NCBI GenBank assembly: GCA_963771045.1
Contig: CAVYRW010000004.1
Coordinates: 1,472,001-1,536,000 of the forward strand
Reading direction: 5' to 3'
Length of the DNA: 64,000 bases
Origin: Waddliaceae bacterium
GTDB lineage: Bacteria; Chlamydiota; Chlamydiia; Chlamydiales; SLFE01
Shown here: one piece after another, positions 17,942 through 27,784 of the stretch
How the letters are laid out: every line of letters begins with the position of its first letter
Position numbering within the stretch: position 1 is the stretch's first letter
Notes under the pieces: model-generated
The model's input: only the letters and a program-made list of their open reading frames with translations
What the model was told of the DNA's origin: nothing
The model's database searches: none
Translations under genes and position numbers: made by a program

Positions 17942-18349
17942 ATGACCGCAAATGAAATCATTTTATTAATTATTGCCATAGCATTTGTCATATTTGTGAT
18001 TTTTGCGGCGATAGTCCTTATTAAATTGGCAAAAGTTTTATTTTCACTGCAAAAACAGATAGATATTATAGGCGCCGAGACAAAAGATCTTGTTCACTCC
18101 GCAGGTCAAATTTCAGATGATTTTCTGTATAAAATGAAAAACACCAACCCATTATTCCAGGCTCTGTCCAATGTCGGCGAAGGGCTGGAAACCAAGAGCT
18201 ATCATTTTAAAGAAAGAGCTTATTGGCAAAGCCGTCAAAAACATTGTAAAACTCAATCGGAAGCAGAAGACCTCGTCACTGATTTTGTTAATTTAGCTCT
18301 GGCAGGAGTACAGGTTTGGCTTTCCGTTAAACATAAAAACGAAGGTTAA
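17942..18349 (+). CDS. DUF948/YoxC-like membrane-anchored coiled-coil protein
   Basis: N-terminal TM (LIIAIAFVIFVIF) followed by a coiled coil; lies upstream of a YtxH-like gene. Confidence 0.65.
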   Translation: MTANEIILLIIAIAFVIFVIFAAIVLIKLAKVLFSLQKQIDIIGAETKDLVHSAGQISDDFLYKMKNTNPLFQALSNVGEGLETKSYHFKERAYWQSRQKHCKTQSEAEDLVTDFVNLALAGVQVWLSVKHKNEG

Positions 18350-18360
18350 GGAGAATTTAT

Positions 18361-18939
18361 ATGGAAGAGGGCAGAATAACCACAAACGAGCTTTTGCTCG
18401 GCGGAGCCATTGGAGCCCTGCTGGCCGCAGGCTCGATTGTTCTTTTAAGATCAAAGCATACCGAATCATATGACACAGGAATCAAAGGAAAATACCAGAA
18501 GTATAAAGATAATATCGAAGAATTCCTTCTATTATTGGAAGACAACATTGAAACAAAAGTTTCGGATAAAGCCCAAGAGTGGGGCCAAACGGTCAAAGAT
18601 ACATCGGAAAATTTAAAATCCGAACTAAGCAAATTCACCGGAGAAGAATACAGCGAGCTAAAAACAGGACTCTTAATTGGAGGTCTTCTGGGTACTGTCC
18701 TTGGGATCGAAGCCACTAAATTGTACTATTCGAAAAATATCAAACAACCGCGTTTCGATGTCCAATCCTTGATTTCCAACAATACGGGTAACTGGAAAAA
18801 CATAGTCCTGGATATTCTGGAAATTGCGGCCAATCGCTCTGACTCCAAACGCGGCAGTCAGAAAGCCGCCAATAAAGTTGACAATATCGTCAATATTGTT
18901 GATTCCGGAATCCAACTTTGGAAGCGCATCAATAAATAA
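18361..18939 (+). CDS. YtxH-like protein with two Gly-rich hydrophobic segments
   Basis: LLLGGAIGALLAAG and GLLIGGLLGTVLG motifs. Confidence 0.6.
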   Translation: MEEGRITTNELLLGGAIGALLAAGSIVLLRSKHTESYDTGIKGKYQKYKDNIEEFLLLLEDNIETKVSDKAQEWGQTVKDTSENLKSELSKFTGEEYSELKTGLLIGGLLGTVLGIEATKLYYSKNIKQPRFDVQSLISNNTGNWKNIVLDILEIAANRSDSKRGSQKAANKVDNIVNIVDSGIQLWKRINK

Positions 18940-19772: not shown

Positions 19773-20231
19773 CTAAATAGGATGGGCATAAGAGACGGCA
19801 ATTTTCCATTTTCCGTCTTTTTGACGCCTGAGAACATCCAGCCCTTTTTCTTTGATTGTCTTCACTTCTAATGAACTTGTCACCGTAAGCGTCCAGATCA
19901 ACCGCACTACAGCTAAATCCCCTTCAATAAAGATTTGCTCGATCTCGGGAGTAGCATAATGGTATTTTTTTTCGGGGTCTTTCAATGCTAGCGAAAATTG
20001 CCGGCACATATCCTGAAAGTTTCTATCTTCGATTCCCGGATAGCTTGCGATAACATCTTCAGCAAACAGACCGCATACAGCTTTTGTATTTTTTGCGTTA
20101 AAATCTTTTGGCCATTGCATCAATAGACCGATAATTTGCTGTTTTGACTGCATGTCTTGGAGGTTTTCAGCAGGAACCAGTGACATCTTGCAAAATATGA
20201 AAATCAGCACTACTTGGAAAAATTGATTCAT
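19773..20231 (-). CDS. NTF2/SnoaL-like (DUF4440-type) protein with signal peptide
   Basis: LFAEDV, GDLAVVRLIWTL and DVLRRQKDGKWKI motifs. Confidence 0.8.
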   Translation of the reverse strand: MNQFFQVVLIFIFCKMSLVPAENLQDMQSKQQIIGLLMQWPKDFNAKNTKAVCGLFAEDVIASYPGIEDRNFQDMCRQFSLALKDPEKKYHYATPEIEQIFIEGDLAVVRLIWTLTVTSSLEVKTIKEKGLDVLRRQKDGKWKIAVSYAHPI

Positions 20232-20527
20232 AGCTTATTTCCTATTTTAGCGGCAATCATGTTTGGGAGGTGCTTTTTTAAAAATTCCGCATGCTCTTCT
20301 TTATAGTTAAAGCTGCAAAAATGATCCTCAGGCTGCTTGTGCTTGATGCAATAAATACCGCCGCATCGACAATTAAATGGAATGGGATAAGGTTTTCTCT
20401 CACAGATGAAACAGCTATCTGAAAATGCTATTTTAGCTGCCTTATCCACTTGCCTCTTTTTTTTAGCTCGATTATTGTCTTCGCGAGAAAAATTCGGGGA
20501 ACCATTTTGAATTAGAGGTATTGTCAT
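20228..20527 (-). CDS. Eukaryote-like AN1 zinc-finger protein
   Basis: C-x2-C-x10-C-x-C-x4-C-x2-H-x5-H-x-C (CFICERKPYPIPFNCRCGGIYCIKHKQPEDHFC) followed by an FNYK...P...AAKI tail as in ZFAND5/6 and plant SAP proteins. Confidence 0.88.
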   Translation of the reverse strand: MTIPLIQNGSPNFSREDNNRAKKKRQVDKAAKIAFSDSCFICERKPYPIPFNCRCGGIYCIKHKQPEDHFCSFNYKEEHAEFLKKHLPNMIAAKIGNKL

Positions 20528-20611
20528 AATCAACCTTTTCTTCACCAAAACGTTTAAATCAACTTAATATATATATGTATTTTTTTGTCAAATCAGTTAT
20601 GAAGAATTTGT

Positions 20612-21775
20612 ATGAAAAAAGCTCTTGCAATCCTTCTGGTTTATCTCCTCGGACTCGTTCAGGGAATCGCTTTTACAACAATACCGGCTGCTGCAAATTT
20701 CTTGACCGGAAGCCGGGGATTTCAGTTTACCGACGCCGAATACGGCTCGATATTTCTTCCTATGATTTTCGGCGCTATTATCGCCTCCTTTGCCGGGGGA
20801 GCTCTGGCTAAAAGGTATACAGTCAAAAACGTATTGCTTGCCGGAATCTTGCTAAGCGCGGCGGCAATGTTTGTTTTCTATTCGGCGTCTTTGCTGACCG
20901 ACGTGCGTTATTCCATCATGATGCTTGTCATGCTGCTGCTGGGAACGGGCTTCGGCGCCAATATCACCTCGCTCAATCCTTTTGCCATCCATTTTTTCCC
21001 CGATCACGCAAGTTCAGCGGTCACAGCTCTCCACAGCTGTCTTGGAATCGGAACGGCAATCGGACCGCTGCTTTGGGTTCTCTACAGCGGCTTAAATATT
21101 TGGTGGGCCGATCCCATCCTTTTGGGCTTTATCTTTGCCGCCCTTTTTCTCTTAAGTTTTCTTTTCCTTCCTAAGTCAGCGGAACTCGAAGGCAAGGGGG
21201 AAGCCCCCTCCTCCCCCCACAAAACGCTTCTCGCAGTTTTTGCCTTTATCGCATTTCTGTATGGAATCATCGAAACAACCTATGGCAATTGGTCAACGAT
21301 ATATTTCCATCAGGTCAAAGGAATGTCGACTGCGAGTTCCAATACCCTCCTGTCCCTTTTCTGGGGGTCGGTTACCGGCGGCAGGATTATAGCGACCTTT
21401 TTGAGCATCGTCATTGCCTCCCGGTGGATCTATCGCGTTCTTCCCTTTCTTGTCTTCGGAAGCGCTGTCGCTTTAGTTTATATCGCTTCTTATGATGCGG
21501 CTTTCGCAGTCATGATCCTCGCAGGGTTGGGATGCTCGGCATTTTTGCCTCTTTCCGTGACCTACGGGGTACAAAATTTAAAAACAAACCCCACTTTCGC
21601 ATCAGGCCTTGTGATCGGAACCTATATGATTGGCTATGGCGTCGCTGCCGAAGGAATCGGATTTCTTCATAAACAGGAAGGGGTTACCTTTGACGCCCTC
21701 TTTATAACTGTCGCCGCTATTGCTCTTGTTCTTATCGGATTTAATTTCGTGTCGACTCTGAAGACGGATCAATAA
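20612..21775 (+). CDS. MFS transporter (FucP/TsgA-like)
   Basis: About 12 hydrophobic segments; FLYGIIETTYGNW and SLFWGSVTGGRI motifs. Confidence 0.85.
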   Translation: MKKALAILLVYLLGLVQGIAFTTIPAAANFLTGSRGFQFTDAEYGSIFLPMIFGAIIASFAGGALAKRYTVKNVLLAGILLSAAAMFVFYSASLLTDVRYSIMMLVMLLLGTGFGANITSLNPFAIHFFPDHASSAVTALHSCLGIGTAIGPLLWVLYSGLNIWWADPILLGFIFAALFLLSFLFLPKSAELEGKGEAPSSPHKTLLAVFAFIAFLYGIIETTYGNWSTIYFHQVKGMSTASSNTLLSLFWGSVTGGRIIATFLSIVIASRWIYRVLPFLVFGSAVALVYIASYDAAFAVMILAGLGCSAFLPLSVTYGVQNLKTNPTFASGLVIGTYMIGYGVAAEGIGFLHKQEGVTFDALFITVAAIALVLIGFNFVSTLKTDQ

Positions 21776-22814
21776 CGGGAATGGGCTTGGCTCCTTTAGT
21801 GTTCAGCTTAATCGCCCACAAAGAATTTGAAGAGCAGATGAACAGGATATTATTATCTTTTCCGCCGAATGTCAGGTTCGCGGTTTGCTTGGGCATCAAA
21901 AATTTTCCGATCAGTTTCCCTTCGGGATTGATGACATGAACGCCGTCGTAGGCTCCCACATAAATGTTATCGTGCTCATCGAGCCTCATGCCGTCAGGGA
22001 AACCGGGAGACACAACAGCAAAAACCCTTTGACCCGAAACTGTTTTGCCGTCTCCGGCCACATCGTAGGCGTAAATGGCGTGATGTTTTTTCTCATAATA
22101 AGTGCGAGGCGCCTGAATAGCGCCGCTGTCGATAACAAAGAGCGTTTTTTCATCTTTGGAAAAGGCAATGCCGTTGGGCATTTGAAGATCGGAAACCTGA
22201 GCGGTCAATTCTTCAGTTTTCGGGTCATAGCGATAGACATTGTTCGGCAGGTAGCACTCCTGGGGAAATTGCAGGCATCCATAAGAAGGATCGGTAAACC
22301 AGACCGTTCCGTCCGACTTGACGACGAGATCATTGGGCGAGTTAAGCGGCTTGCCCTCGTAAAAGCCGACAAGTGTTTTCACTGTGCCGTCAAACTCAGT
22401 GATCGACACCCGCCTTCCTGTTGTTTCCGCTGTCAAAAGACGTCCGTTTAGGTCTGCTGTCTGCCCGTCTGCGATATTCGACGGATGGCGGTATACAACC
22501 GGTTTTTCCCAAGAAAGCGGTGTGATCTTATTGTAGGGCTCAAGACCGTGCCAGCGAAGCATCAGAATATTGTCATTGATTTGATCGGTAAAAAAAAGAT
22601 AGCCCTCTTCCGATCCCTTCATCTGAACATAGACAGGCCCTTCGGTAAAACCGAACCCTTCAGCAATGTGGATCAATCTCGGCTCCATGCCAAGGATTTT
22701 GGCAAAGGATTCGTCGTAAACTTCAAGGGGCAGCTGCGGCGATTCTTTTTCGGGATAAGACGGAGCGTTGACAATCCCCAAAACAGCTAAAAATAAACTC
22801 AGCAAACAAGTCAT
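21741..22814 (-). CDS. SMP-30/gluconolactonase family secreted protein
   Basis: FTEGP, LNSPNDL..KSDG.VWFTDP, PNGIAFS and PDGMRLD; ATG overlaps the upstream stop (ATGA). Confidence 0.92.
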   Translation of the reverse strand: MTCLLSLFLAVLGIVNAPSYPEKESPQLPLEVYDESFAKILGMEPRLIHIAEGFGFTEGPVYVQMKGSEEGYLFFTDQINDNILMLRWHGLEPYNKITPLSWEKPVVYRHPSNIADGQTADLNGRLLTAETTGRRVSITEFDGTVKTLVGFYEGKPLNSPNDLVVKSDGTVWFTDPSYGCLQFPQECYLPNNVYRYDPKTEELTAQVSDLQMPNGIAFSKDEKTLFVIDSGAIQAPRTYYEKKHHAIYAYDVAGDGKTVSGQRVFAVVSPGFPDGMRLDEHDNIYVGAYDGVHVINPEGKLIGKFLMPKQTANLTFGGKDNNILFICSSNSLWAIKLNTKGAKPIPVIDPSSESTRN

Positions 22815-23089
22815 AAGCACTGCTGCAATACTGACCGGATCGCCTCAGCCCGGCTTGTTCCCTGAAGTTTTTTTGTCGCTCCGCTTTTGTCGATGTGCCC
22901 TTCCGCCAGTTTCACCCACTTATCACGAATTTGATCAATCATGGCAGGATCCAGATCGCGGCGGAAATCAAACGTTTCCTTGGCCGCCTCATAAATCGCA
23001 TTAATATCTTCTTTGCCGAACTTGCCCTTCTCTTTATTTTGAATGGCCTTGTCAAAAGCCTTTAGAAGTTTGCTCGCTTCCTCTGACAT
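22811..23089 (-). CDS. Small hypothetical protein (92 aa)
   Basis: Starts 5 nt after the catalase stop; its stop overlaps the next ATG. Confidence 0.7.
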   Translation of the reverse strand: MSEEASKLLKAFDKAIQNKEKGKFGKEDINAIYEAAKETFDFRRDLDPAMIDQIRDKWVKLAEGHIDKSGATKKLQGTSRAEAIRSVLQQCL

Positions 23090-23094
23090 ACTTG

Positions 23095-24539
23095 TTACCT
23101 CGTAATTTTCAAAGCTTTCCGAACCCCCGCGCCGTAGTCCTTGTGAACTTTATCGAAAAGGGCCGTTTGCCGGTCGATAATCTCTTGCGGCACACCCTTC
23201 ATCGCGTCGACGATATTGCTAAACAGCCGCTGTTTTTGATCGTCATCAAACAGCTCGAAGAGAGCCCGCGGCTGGACGAAATCATCACTGCCCTCGCGAT
23301 GGTCATAGCGGTCGGCATCGCCAGAGATCTTAAGCGGCGGTTCTTTGTAGGAGGGATTCTCTACAGCGCCGCCCATAGAATTGGGCTCGTAAAAAGCATC
23401 AGTGCTGCCGCTTTTTTGTCCGAAGAAATTCATCTTGCCGTCTTTGTGATAATGGTGAACGGGGCAACGCGGTGCATTCACCGGCAGGGCCTCATAATGG
23501 GTTCCTAAACGGTATCTATGGGCATCGGCATAAGAGAAGATGCGCGACTGCAGCATTTTATCGGGCGACCAGCTCACTCCGGCAACGATATTCGACGGCG
23601 AGAAAGCCAGCTGCTCGATCTCGGTAAAATAATTATCCGGATTGCGGTTTAGTTCCAGCTCGCCAACGTCGATGCAGGGATATTCCGAATGTGGCCAAAC
23701 CTTAGTCAAATCGAAAGGATTGTAAGAGGTATGAAGCGCCTCTTCTTCGGACATAACCTGTATCTGAAACTTCCATTTCGGAAACTCCCCCCGTTCAATG
23801 GCTCCATAGAGCATCTCCTGAGAGGTTTCACGAGATTTCCCCACAACCTCCACAGCTTCGGCATTTGTGAAAAATTTATGCCCCTGCATTGTTTTGAAAT
23901 GGTATTTAACCCAGTATCTTTCTCCCTTGTCATTCCAAAGGCTGTATGTGTGCGAGCCATAGCCATTCATGTGCATTGGGGATATCGGAAGGCCGCGGTC
24001 CGACATCAAAATCGTCACCTGGTGCAGAGATTCCGGACTGAGCGACCAAAAATCCCACATGGCAGTTAACGAACGGAGATTGGTTTTAGGATGCCGTTTC
24101 TGCGTGTGGATAAAATCGGGAAATTTATAAGGATCGCGAACAAAGAAAACAGGGGTATTGTTTCCCACTAAGTCCCAGTTGCCTTCATCTGTATAAAACT
24201 TCAGTGCAAAGCCGCGCAAGTCCCGTTCCGCGTCGGCGGCCCCTATTTCCCCGGCGACGGTGGAAAAGCGGGCAATCATCGGCGTCTTGGCACCTGGTTG
24301 CAAAGCTTTGGCGCGCGTATACTTAGAAATATCACCCGTGATCCTAAGAGTGCCTTGGCTCCCCACCCTTTAGCGTGAACGGTTCTTTCCGGAATCCGCT
24401 CGCGGTTTTGATGGGCCAATTTTTCTATAAGCTGATAATCCTGAATCAATAAAGGCCCTCTCGGACCCGCTGTGATTGAATTCTGATTATCCGGGATCGG
24501 AGCGCCTGCTGTCGTCGTCAGTTCGGGGGGCTCTTCCAT
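23095..24539 (-). CDS. katA: Small-subunit monofunctional heme catalase (one frameshift near 24355)
   Basis: [50 protein letters not shown], heme-ligand motif [14 protein letters not shown]. Confidence 0.93.
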
Positions 24540-24978
24540 CTTGACCTATCTCCTGTTGACCCCCTTTTAACAATTCCAGATGTTTTTGGAAAGCCCGAAT
24601 CGTGTCTTCGCTAACGTGATGCTCCATCCCCTCGACATCGATTTCCGCAATGTGCTTCGGAACTCCTAAAGTTATCAGATAATCCATGAGAAACGCATGA
24701 CGCTGCTTGCTCATTTTTGCGAGCTTTGTCCCTTTAGCTGTCAGTGTCACAGGCTGATTCTGCTCAGTTTTGACAAGGCCTTTCTTCCGAAGCCTCCCGA
24801 GTGTCCTCACAACGGTCACATGAGAAACACCCAAGTGCTTAGCGATATCGCAAACTCTGGCTTCGCCTTTCTGGGATATAATGTCATCTATGATCTCGAC
24901 ATAATCCTCGGCCGTCTCAGAAACATGATGATTCCGCGTCGCAATAAAGGGTTTTGCTCGTCTTAAGTTCTTTTTCAT
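24487..24978 (-). CDS. mntR: Mn-dependent transcriptional regulator MntR (DtxR family); true stop probably TAG at 24548-24546
   Basis: EDYVEII...[24 protein letters not shown] and [10 protein letters not shown] closely follow the E. coli-type MntR pattern. Confidence 0.88.
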
Positions 24979-26005
24979 ATTGTCTCGAATTGGTAGTCTA
25001 AAGGAAGCCTGAAAAAATATCCTTTCTTTTCAGCCAGATGCTTGTTGGCAATCACGCATAAGCGATTATGCAAAACTTTGTTATCGGTAAGCTCCGATAA
25101 ATAGCGTTTATAAATGGTTCTGGTCAACTCGAATTCACCTTCTTCAATCATACACCAAGAATGTAGGAAAAAGGCAACCCACATGACTTCTATCGCATTG
25201 AACGGCCATTCCCCCAAATGTCCTGTATCGCCGAGGTCTTCTCTCTTATAAAAAATCATTTCTCCCAGACCCACTTCACCGACGATCGAAAGGATCCGCG
25301 AAGTAAAGCAAATTATGGGAATCGCGATTCCCATAATCAGCGAAATCAAACATCTGGACACTCCGTCTTTTCTAACAATTTTTGTCCGTATGCCAGCTTC
25401 CTGAAATACCCTCTGCAAGAAGACATTTTTTTTATATCCTTCTCAATTCTGATAAGCATGTCTTTGAGTTGACCATCTTTGCGATGGATCGAGCTTTTCT
25501 TTGCGGGGCTTGCCTCTTCGCATACCTTGAGGACCTTAAGACGTCTGGAAACCGGATTTTTTGAAAAGAGGCACTGAGAACTGTAGGCATCGAAAAGATC
25601 ATTCAATTTTCGATATAAATGTTTGGGAGGTCTTCGGCAACCTTCAATCCACTTTTGGCAAATCGGACCCAACTTGCAATACTCCCCTTCCCTTATCAAT
25701 TGGATCGACACTGTTCCCAATGCAATTGAAGAAAAAACAGAGATCGCCGTCCATCCTCCAGCATCTCCCAACGGCCTAATTCTCTCAAAGGGATCATTCT
25801 CTTTTGCCAGCTCGATAAATGAACGGACAGCTCCCTCAATACAGAAAAAGGATACCGAAAGGACATAAACCTTCGCTGTTACAAGCGTTCCCGCTATTAA
25901 GGATCCGCGCAGAATCCCCTTCTGTCTAATCGCACTTAAGATCCGATTAAAGAAAAAACGATCATCGGTTTGCGCATGTATTTCTCGTGCAAGTTCTATT
26001 GTCAT
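24975..26005 (-). CDS. Hypothetical membrane protein, probably one gene split at an A8 run (25426-25433)
   Basis: Two overlapping same-strand ORFs; AAGGAG RBS; several hydrophobic segments; stop overlaps the mntR ATG. Confidence 0.6.
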
Positions 26006-26020
26006 TGTCAGCTCCTTAAT

Positions 26021-26067
26021 ATTGTAGCTTAAGCTACAATTGAGGAATTGTAGCCACGGCTACAATT
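26021..26067. promoter_or_regulatory. Two tandem palindromic operators ATTGTAGC-N4-GCTACAAT (putative MntR boxes)
   Basis: 26021-26040 ATTGTAGCttaaGCTACAAT and 26047-26066 ATTGTAGCcacgGCTACAAT, directly upstream of the RBS of the mntR/catalase operon. Confidence 0.8.
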
Positions 26068-26290
26068 AAGATCTATAAAAAATCTGGTATTGAGCAATTT
26101 TGCTTGATCATACATGAGTTTTAGATAAGAAAACTTTTGGTTTTTAGAACCTATCCAACTAAAAATTTTTGTCCAGATTTGAGTTCATTTTTAGTTTTTG
26201 AGGTAGTGTAACATCGTTTCTGTAAATTCAATTTCCGAGAGAAAAGTCTTGAGGAAAAAAGTTTGAGATCAGATTCTCTTTGTCTGCAAC

Positions 26291-27490
26291 CTCTGTACTG
26301 GACAAAAAATCATTTCACACATGACAACCTCCTCTTTCTAAGCAGTCGAATGACCACAGTATCTGTTTGATTTCATTAATATTAGACTCGATGTTCATGA
26401 GTGCCCTCCGAATCATATCCAATCCCAGTCAAAATATGCTTTTACTCTTCCGTCCATGGACTTTTTTCCTGATGGGAGTGATTTTGGACTGGATTTCACC
26501 CGTTCTATAGGCCCAGCAGAAGACGATAGCCAAGACAAAGAGGATCTTCTCGATCTTATCAGGATCGGTAACATGAGTATCTTCCATGCGGAATCCGCGA
26601 CTTTTAAGGCACCCAAAAAGCGTCTCTATTTCCCATCGCCTTTTGTAGACCGCTAATGCATCTTCAAAGTCATGATTCGAAACCACGATCATGGGCTCTT
26701 TCGAACCTTTTTTGCCTTTCTGAAAGGATAAATACAGCTGCAGCCCCCATAGTTCTACCGGGACATTGAGAACTTTTTTTCTTCTTCCGTAACATTTCAA
26801 GAGTTGGTGAATGGAAATCGATTCATGAGAGCCTAACTCGAGAATCTTATACGAGCCCTTCACACGGATAACGAATGGAATGCGAGCGTCTATCAAGAAG
26901 AGAAACCAATCTTCTCCAATAAATTCACGATCAGCAGTAAAAGCTTCGATTTTCTCGGGTGAAAACTTCGTGAGAGTGCGTTTGAGCAGGGATATTCGAT
27001 CGTGTGTGGATGAGTTGCCTTCCAAGTCTAAAACAGACCAGAAAAAAGAGATGCTGATCTCTTTATAGGCGATTGAGAGCATTAATATGTTAATCGGGGT
27101 CTTGCCCCCACTTCCAGTTCGTCCGATCAAGGATGAGCGTACATTTTTGATCAAGGGGAAACAATTTGAGAATGAAGGGGGCTATACAACTGAAGTCAAA
27201 TGAGAAGTCAGTAAAGAATCTGCATATCCTGCGATAAGCAGACTCTTCCTTGCAATCTGTTTGGAATGCCGTTGCGATTTGTGCCAGGTTGATGGTCCGC
27301 ACGCAAAACAGAGCTTGGACGATGTGGGTCAAGCAAGTGATTCTGGCCTTGTCCAATTGAAAAAGTGAGCTAAAATGGTTCTTAGTTCGCTGATGTGATT
27401 CATAAAAGTACCTCGCTGGTTTGGTTTTCAACGAGTTACGATTGCATCAGCGACATTTTTTTATCAAATCATTTTTTGTCCAGTACAGAG
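26291..27490 (-). mobile_element. IS4-family insertion sequence (1.2 kb); transposase 26315-27403 frameshifted
   Basis: Terminal IRs CTCTGTACTGGACAAAAAAT / ATTTTTTGTCCAGTACAGAG; ILDRTNWKWG, ADREF and YKRRWEIETLFGCLKSRGF motifs; no TSD visible. Confidence 0.92.
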
Positions 27491-27784
27491 ATCTAAATCA
27501 CTAAAATTTTCTTCTAAAGTTTTAATGAGAAGATGTTTATCGTTAAATAAATAGTAAACCCTCTTCTTGAGATAGCCATTTTCATAAATGTGTTTATGTA
27601 TTTTTAGTTTCGAACCAGGCTGTTGATAATAGAAAACTTCAGTATCGTTGTCCTCCCATTCATGATGTACCAGGTCAAGCTCGCATAGACAGTCTTCTTC
27701 GTAAAACTCTATATCAGAATTTTCGTATTGGAGACAGTGTTCCCATGACAGAAGGAGAAAAATCGCCAAAAACATCATACACAC
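27491..27784 (-). pseudogene. Hypothetical exported protein truncated by IS4
   Basis: ORF with hydrophobic N-terminus runs into the IS4 IR at 27490. Confidence 0.5.

Follow-up and report, generated by a model that had tools for sequence, protein, structure and literature searches.

The MntR-mntH regulon of alphaproteobacteria and enterobacteria combines a short-form MntR with a 20-bp TAGC-N4-GCTA box located in the promoter region of a target gene beside mntR (PMC1698941). The YtgR/ytgABCD system of Chlamydia has a metal repressor of the DtxR family governing metal uptake (PMC5599777), and Legionella, an amoeba-dwelling, vacuolar bacterium, has in MavN a metal-regulated and lineage-specific membrane protein with His/Glu ligands (PMC11381811). 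Likenesses to all of these were found in a 64,000-nucleotide stretch of the genome of a Waddliaceae bacterium (contig CAVYRW010000004.1, positions 1,472,001 to 1,536,000; hereafter the window), where the gene of an uncharacterised membrane protein is preceded by two predicted MntR operators and followed by mntR. The gene mntR itself (PUV_18110, ChlamOG_1991) has already been listed for four environmental chlamydial genomes by Domman and Horn in 2015, and a term search of the main text and of four of the five supplementary files of that paper revealed no operator, regulon or neighbour gene (PMC4652624). Nor was an account of this regulon found in the literature searched, the coverage of which mostly excludes subscription journals.

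Predicted operators and their regulator

The genome holding the window is designated G000, and G001 and G002 are relatives of the same genus. Directly 5′ of the membrane protein gene (24975-26005, minus strand), two palindromes with perfect 8-bp arms, ATTGTAGC-N4-GCTACAAT, are located at 26047-26066 (distal) and 26021-26040 (proximal), 26 bp apart from centre to centre. The proximal palindrome lies 3 nucleotides (nt) 5′ of the AAGGAG ribosome-binding site of the gene (26012-26017, minus strand). This confirmed in the sequence the twin palindromes of the preliminary description, and the segment 25813-26067 was matched by a short-read contig with zero differences. The right arm of the distal operator contains on the minus strand a putative −10-like hexamer, TACAAT (26052-26047), and the promoter scanner called neither this hexamer nor any other site at the operators.

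The 2.57-Mb genome of G000 contained no further match to the palindrome at up to two mismatches, and by arithmetic from base composition an exact copy would be expected by chance about once per thousand genomes of this kind. An operator matrix was built from 64 sites, with the consensus AATGTAGC-N4-GCTACATT. When trained without G000 and G001 it gave the two operators 24.8 and 24.5 bits, and the next site in G000, inside an open reading frame (ORF), 17.5 bits. Each 20-bp palindrome encloses the TAGC-N4-GCTA core that defines the MntR box. The likeness to the known box that had been pointed out before was borne out by this core and by the predicted mntH boxes of R. capsulatus and Bradyrhizobium BTAi1 (Table S5), which are nearly identical to the chlamydial consensus; the enterobacterial consensus has the core in common with it (PMC1698941). 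The second site of G001 differs from that of G000 symmetrically, with both arms altered, as expected for a dimeric binder. Based on motif, placement and the co-occurrence given below, the two palindromes very likely serve as MntR operators, at which binding is predicted. A special meaning of the 26-bp spacing was rejected, since the distance between paired sites ranges from 16 to 41 bp across relatives.

The regulator is encoded next to the membrane protein gene (24487-24978, minus strand) and is 163 amino acids (aa) long in the window and 141 aa in G001. It reached 158.3 bits against the NF008273 equivalog model (cut-off 153), and its best relative in the PDB was 2h09 (E = 8e-29). In an alignment to 1on1, all six positions equivalent to D8, E11, H77, E99, E102 and H103, which we take to be the Mn-site residues of B. 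subtilis MntR, carried the ligand residues. They were invariant in 38/38 extracted chlamydial copies, an extraction whose pattern partly selects for them. This short form (141-163 aa) consists of PF01325 and PF02742 only, with neither a C-terminal FeoA/SH3 domain nor a permease fusion. The regulator is MntR of the proteobacterial type, in agreement with its first assignment, and Mn2+-dependent DNA binding is predicted for it. A separate YtgC-YtgR fusion is present in G000, and no match to Fur was found in that genome. YtgR was rejected as the operator-binding factor, as the ytg locus has no box and three of four MntR-less genomes with the membrane protein family have no operator despite YtgR. 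A second mntR in another genome (G185, C5) has no operator and no member of the membrane protein family alongside.

Distribution of the operator in Chlamydiota

A search of 401 Chlamydiota genomes with NF008273 at E ≤ 1e-10 gave matches in 40, of which G032, a weak match of a different DtxR type, was left out, leaving 39 MntR genomes. The gene remnant in G089, with its upstream region unscored, was likewise left out, and G062 lay outside the surveys of the membrane protein family, NRAMP and the p92 protein described below, for which n = 400. The membrane protein family was found with the core profile in 29/400 genomes, and divergent members were found in 15 further genomes, 14 of them located beside mntR and one by a single-repeat profile.

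A membrane-family gene with the operator upstream was present in all 39 MntR genomes: 37/37 by leave-one-out matrix scoring, together with G263 and G336, which were found later via the single-repeat profile. In 36 of the 39 the gene adjoins mntR. The order was membrane gene followed by mntR in 19 genomes and the reverse in one; 14 pairs were divergent, two convergent, two unlinked and one split by contig ends. Where the two genes have separate promoters, the operator was at the membrane gene in 5/5 cases (G046 and G249, convergent; G213 and G263, unlinked; G318, with mntR upstream). In 38/39 genomes the distance from the sites to the start is about 20-85 nt, and the sites often cover the predicted −35/−10 hexamers. 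This is the geometry of repression, and the repressor sites at mntH and mntA are placed in the same way (PMC11882963).

Two or more sites were found at 31 of the 41 scored loci, one site at seven and none at three (G302, G352 and G044), the last all from genomes without MntR. Together with G011 these make up the four scored genomes that have the membrane gene and no MntR; an operator was found in one of the four, and all four have YtgR. A search of 45 genomes for the exact pattern gave 47 sites, 42 of them at the membrane gene, and the five others were fewer than the 10 matches to the reversed-pattern control. The palindromes had been supposed to be conserved upstream of orthologous operons; this holds for the membrane gene in 39/39 MntR genomes, but for the catalase gene of the window in 2/39 only.

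Sites had also been anticipated at mntH, sit and tro promoters. None was present at the ytg, znu-like and sod loci of G000 or upstream of the 12 NRAMP loci examined out of 17 NRAMP matches, and a wider regulon was therefore rejected. NRAMP gave no match in G000. It was found in 16/400 genomes, three of which also have the membrane family (G145, G249 and, weakly, G011), so that no pattern of replacement was shown. In G249 (C1:799000-809000), an operator-free pair of mntH and a universal-stress-protein gene lies about 3 kb from mntR, and the membrane gene there has twin operators. The two Fe/Mn superoxide dismutase genes of G000 (C4:1964819 and C4:543460), one of which is frameshifted, have no operator.

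The membrane protein family

The membrane protein, intact with 342 aa in G001, consists of two copies of a unit made up of a hydrophobic transmembrane helix (TM), an acidic loop, the motif G[DH]xG[GE]W and a second, more polar TM. A repeat comparison showed the halves to be homologous (P = 98.9%, E = 3.8e-17). Among 73 sequences, G80, W85, G242, G261, H262, E265 and W266 were conserved in at least 90%, with H262 kept in 71 and E265 in 70. The outer loops between the four hydrophobic helices contain 4.6-5.0 D/E against 1.5-2.7 K/R, and the inner flanks of TM1 and TM3 are basic. Based on this charge bias, the acidic loops are predicted to lie outside. They bear histidines and are 28 and 24 aa long on the helix boundaries set in the analysis. 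AlphaFold gave an all-helical model (pLDDT 89, pTM 0.82).

The family comprises 95 clusters at 50% identity, including Parachlamydia acanthamoebae WP_013925188, and no paper naming its accessions was found. Its subfamilies, the core, B and C, were joined by profile-profile comparison at 93.7-99.2% probability. In the MntR tree the core-subfamily genomes cluster (5 changes; 0/500 shuffles as low) and those of subfamily B do not, which shows relatedness and not co-evolution. Half-size members of roughly 212 aa with a single repeat exist and imply oligomers. A member of 659 aa with three to four repeat units was seen in G044 (C17), a genome without MntR or operator.

Searches for relatives outside the family gave little. 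Among 73 members, Pfam gave only sub-cut-off matches, to BrkB (4) and DUF2207_C (1), and for three members nothing in NCBIfam exceeded the cut-off. The NRAMP/MntH, ABC permease, MntP, ZIP, CDF and CorA transporter families had no Pfam or NCBIfam match. Neither the ESM Atlas (best 0.77) nor the PDB sequence search (best E = 0.29) gave a family match, Foldseek against PDB and viral structures gave nothing at E ≤ 0.001, and the best hits of the VIA wide structure search (Z = 8.8 and 7.8) were to generic hairpins. This lack of family and fold matches does not prove the fold to be new. The preliminary description had supposed that the protein might be a component of metal homeostasis. The co-occurrence of operator and MntR with the gene in 39/39 genomes supports this, and such a role appears very likely.

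Proposed function and its alternatives

The presence of the same operator before the same gene in 39/39 MntR genomes, taken with the match to the known box, makes it likely that Mn-loaded MntR represses the membrane gene. As the sole conserved member of the regulon, adjacent to mntR, Mn-repressed by this prediction and found in a genome (G000) without NRAMP, the gene is best read as that of a Mn2+ importer. We lean, with some reserve, towards a new family of MntR-repressed importers or channels for manganese in the inner membrane, placed in the usual slot of mntH.

The system may work as follows: With sufficient Mn2+, MntR dimers bound over the −10/start region would silence the membrane gene, and mntR would also repress itself where it lies downstream of or divergent from that gene. 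When Mn2+ falls, the membrane gene would be expressed. Two hairpin units per chain, or one in half-size members, might assemble into a ring, with the N-terminus, middle and C-terminus inside and the acidic loops, with their histidines, facing outwards. Uptake of the ion would fall to the His/Glu of G[DH]xG[GE]W...E, where the second helix has its outer end. In its fullest form, this would be a Mn-channel family with a fold absent from the PDB, built from a single or duplicated two-helix unit into a ring with a His/Glu filter, which forms the whole MntR regulon of environmental chlamydiae and replaces MntH; for this version we consider the chances to be even.

Several observations weigh against an importer or channel. 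The ytg-type ABC system of G000 could import Mn, and the family does not exclude NRAMP, no anti-correlation between the two being seen. Paired sites are also found at E. coli mntS, which is repressed and is not a transporter, and multi-site arrays also at exporters activated by MntR (PMC11882963). The divergent subfamilies B and C keep the His/Glu motif less strictly and carry N/Q/D/T at its positions, and this weakens the strict-filter reading. The hydrophobicity of helices 2 and 4 is only moderate (mean Kyte-Doolittle value about 1.0), and no fold match backs a channel. Degenerate operator sites are retained in G011, yet no MntR was detected in that genome (95% complete, 270 contigs). Linkage is inflated because the divergent members were mostly found via their adjacency to mntR, and the genomes are related, so that the counts are not independent.

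Among the alternatives, the one surviving best, although we regard it as unlikely, is a Mn-repressed protein that is not a transporter. It could be an accessory factor or one that spares Mn, comparable to E. coli MntS or partnering the ytg ABC system, or else it could stand in for some function without needing Mn. MntR regulons do include non-transporters, and the paired sites of mntS overlap its promoter (PMC11882963). No transporter fold was found, the ligand residues differ between subfamilies, and large soluble helical domains suggest protein contacts. However, the gene is the sole conserved member of the regulon in genomes mostly without NRAMP, its slot beside mntR is that of mntH in alphaproteobacteria (PMC1698941), and the acidic outer loops have invariant H/E residues.

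A little less probable still is that the MntR-repressed gene encodes a type III-exported protein resembling the inclusion membrane (Inc) proteins, which like MavN would give Mn2+ of the host cytosol access to the vacuole. The sub-case of a channel exported to the inclusion membrane as the chlamydial counterpart of Legionella MavN is judged about equally doubtful. Such a location would suit a family that the genome searches traced to Chlamydiota-type genomes alone and whose divergent members have variable, Ser/Thr-rich N-termini of low confidence, and MavN moves Fe, Mn, Co and Zn across the vacuole membrane (PMC11381811). The two hydrophobic hairpins with loops below 30 residues also agree with the screening rule of Dehoux et al., but known Inc loops average 8 residues, with a maximum of 22, and are without K/R/D/E (PMC3048545), whereas those of the family are longer (24-28 aa) and acidic, with about 5 D/E each. 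In addition, order in the core subfamily sets in at residue 2 (pLDDT 85), an Inc topology would turn the acidic loops to the lumen, away from the metal source, and the membrane protein was not found in the small-genome family f35 (0/29), which by its size is probably the Chlamydiaceae.

It is improbable that MntR instead activates the gene through paired sites and that the protein is a manganese exporter. Twin or triple sites are present at 31/41 loci, TTGACA abuts the first site at several loci, and MntR of B. subtilis activates exporters via adjacent sites, one of which overlaps the −35 (PMC11882963). Yet activated promoters use weak, cooperative sites (PMC11882963), whereas the chlamydial ones are near-perfect, vary in spacing from 16 to 41 bp, are single at seven loci and extend beyond the predicted −10 towards the ribosome site, and the conserved acidic face is predicted outside.

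The catalase cluster and neighbouring genes

Downstream of the module formed by the membrane gene and mntR, also on the minus strand, lie the genes of a small-subunit monofunctional heme catalase (23095-24539), of p92, a conserved chlamydial protein of 92 aa outside the conserved MntR module (22811-23089), and of an SMP-30/gluconolactonase-family protein with a hydrophobic N-terminus (21741-22814). The five genes had been described as tightly coupled. ATGA overlaps join the membrane gene to mntR (24978-24975) and p92 to SMP-30 (22814-22811), and catalase and p92 are 5 nt apart. At variance with that description, the membrane gene (26005-25346 and 25418-24975, break near 25378) and the catalase gene (24539-24276 and 24366-23095, break near 24358) are each split over two frames, the split of catalase having gone unmentioned there, and mntR runs 22 codons beyond the stop of G001, giving a 53-nt overlap with the catalase start. 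All five are intact in G001, with products of 342, 141, 481, 92 and 359 aa. Of 151 G001 ORFs of at least 200 aa, taken from 243 kb, 104 were closely matched in G000; 17 of these matched genes, including the membrane gene and catalase, were split over frames and six more had internal stops. Contigs from the three public sequencing runs listed covered neither break. Frameshifts being this frequent, both breaks are probably assembly errors, and split genes elsewhere in the G000 assembly should likewise be treated as probable sequencing errors.

The catalase (G001 copy, 481 aa) has PF00199 and PF06628 and is close to solved small-subunit catalases. Catalase was found in 17/47 genomes searched and in 15 of the 39 MntR genomes, in 13 of which it is elsewhere or convergent, as in G185, about 1 kb from the module. 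Catalase, p92 and SMP-30 follow the module in the same direction in G000 and G001 only. In G002 (82% complete) the gene preceding these three is unrelated, and the 1.2 kb upstream contains neither operator nor module. The protein p92 occurs in 11/400 genomes with varied neighbours; it is helical, with an invariant C-terminal QGTSRAEAI.SVL motif, and its Atlas look-alikes carry PF11867, the C-terminus of type I restriction R-subunits (0.95, low recognition), which is a lead only. From this linkage, the G002 cluster and the varied contexts of p92, it appears that in the G000/G001 clade the module was recently placed before an older catalase-p92-SMP-30 cluster, of which catalase and SMP-30 would be clade-specific passengers. 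Catalase, proposed earlier as the main target of the locus, is not a conserved target.

Within this clade, Mn repression of catalase by read-through is plausible, as the gap between mntR and katA in G001 is 13 nt, and the promoter scanner found no promoter-like site on the coding strand from the operators to the start of the catalase gene. The three genes would be read from the membrane-gene promoter, and Mn scarcity would bring about catalase synthesis. A conserved circuit that serves to keep catalase repressed while Mn-based antioxidant defence suffices is the least probable explanation, very unlikely in our judgement: the same-strand coupling in G000, intact in G001, the short mntR-katA gap and the replacement by mntR coding sequence of the AT-rich region found upstream of katA in G002 favour it, but catalase is linked in 2/39 MntR genomes and elsewhere or convergent in 13/15, and the G002 cluster is without the module, so that the circuit, if real in the clade, would be a recent capture.

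A second, frameshifted catalase-p92-SMP-30-MFS copy was seen on a short contig of G001 (C46), either a duplicate or a strain mix. In the window an MFS transporter gene (20612-21775) is convergent and overlapping with SMP-30, and MFS, SMP-30 and p92 occur together, in a different order, also in G016. In G345 and G357, p92 adjoins a gene labelled Fic-like by reading the sequence. An insertion sequence element (26289-27492), whose DDE_Tnp_1 transposase is split over two frames, has its end roughly 220 nt upstream of the operators; at least six copies at 92-95% are present in G000, and G001 has a different gene at that place. At 20228-20548 a 106-aa protein contains an AN1-type zinc finger (PF01428, above cut-off), a mostly eukaryotic domain, and is possibly host-directed. 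A DUF948 and YtxH-like gene pair at 17942-18939 resembles a general-stress pair.

Comparison with known systems

Chlamydiae use Mn/Fe enzymes (PMC9936198), and the regulon may bear on how manganese is supplied inside the vacuole for the Mn/Fe ribonucleotide reductase and folate oxygenase. With one gene in the regulon and a near-perfect operator before it, a specific, testable function can be proposed for an unannotated family of at least 95 clusters, and the member in cultured P. acanthamoebae (WP_013925188) opens it to experiments in E. coli and in an amoeba infection model. The capture of catalase, confined to one clade, illustrates on a small scale how a regulon grows by gene juxtaposition. 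Few families of bacterial manganese importers are known, to our knowledge.

MCU and CorA, two-helix oligomeric cation channels, have a helix-loop-helix whose second helix begins with a conserved Trp/acidic motif, which the chlamydial unit resembles by analogy only. The searches gave no sequence or fold match between them; the single and duplicated forms of the chlamydial protein imply a ring. MavN is iron-regulated and secreted and its transport has been shown (PMC11381811), whereas for the chlamydial protein both location and transport are predictions. YtgR differs from MntR as an iron-responsive permease fusion (PMC5599777), and the two are separate, both being present in G000, where the ytg locus has no box. 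Closest is the MntR-mntH regulon, from which the chlamydial one departs in its target, a four-helix repeat protein without a family match instead of NRAMP, and the 12 chlamydial NRAMP loci examined have no box upstream. The regulatory logic follows a known type, but the target belongs to a family without annotation, for which the functional prediction is strong and specific.

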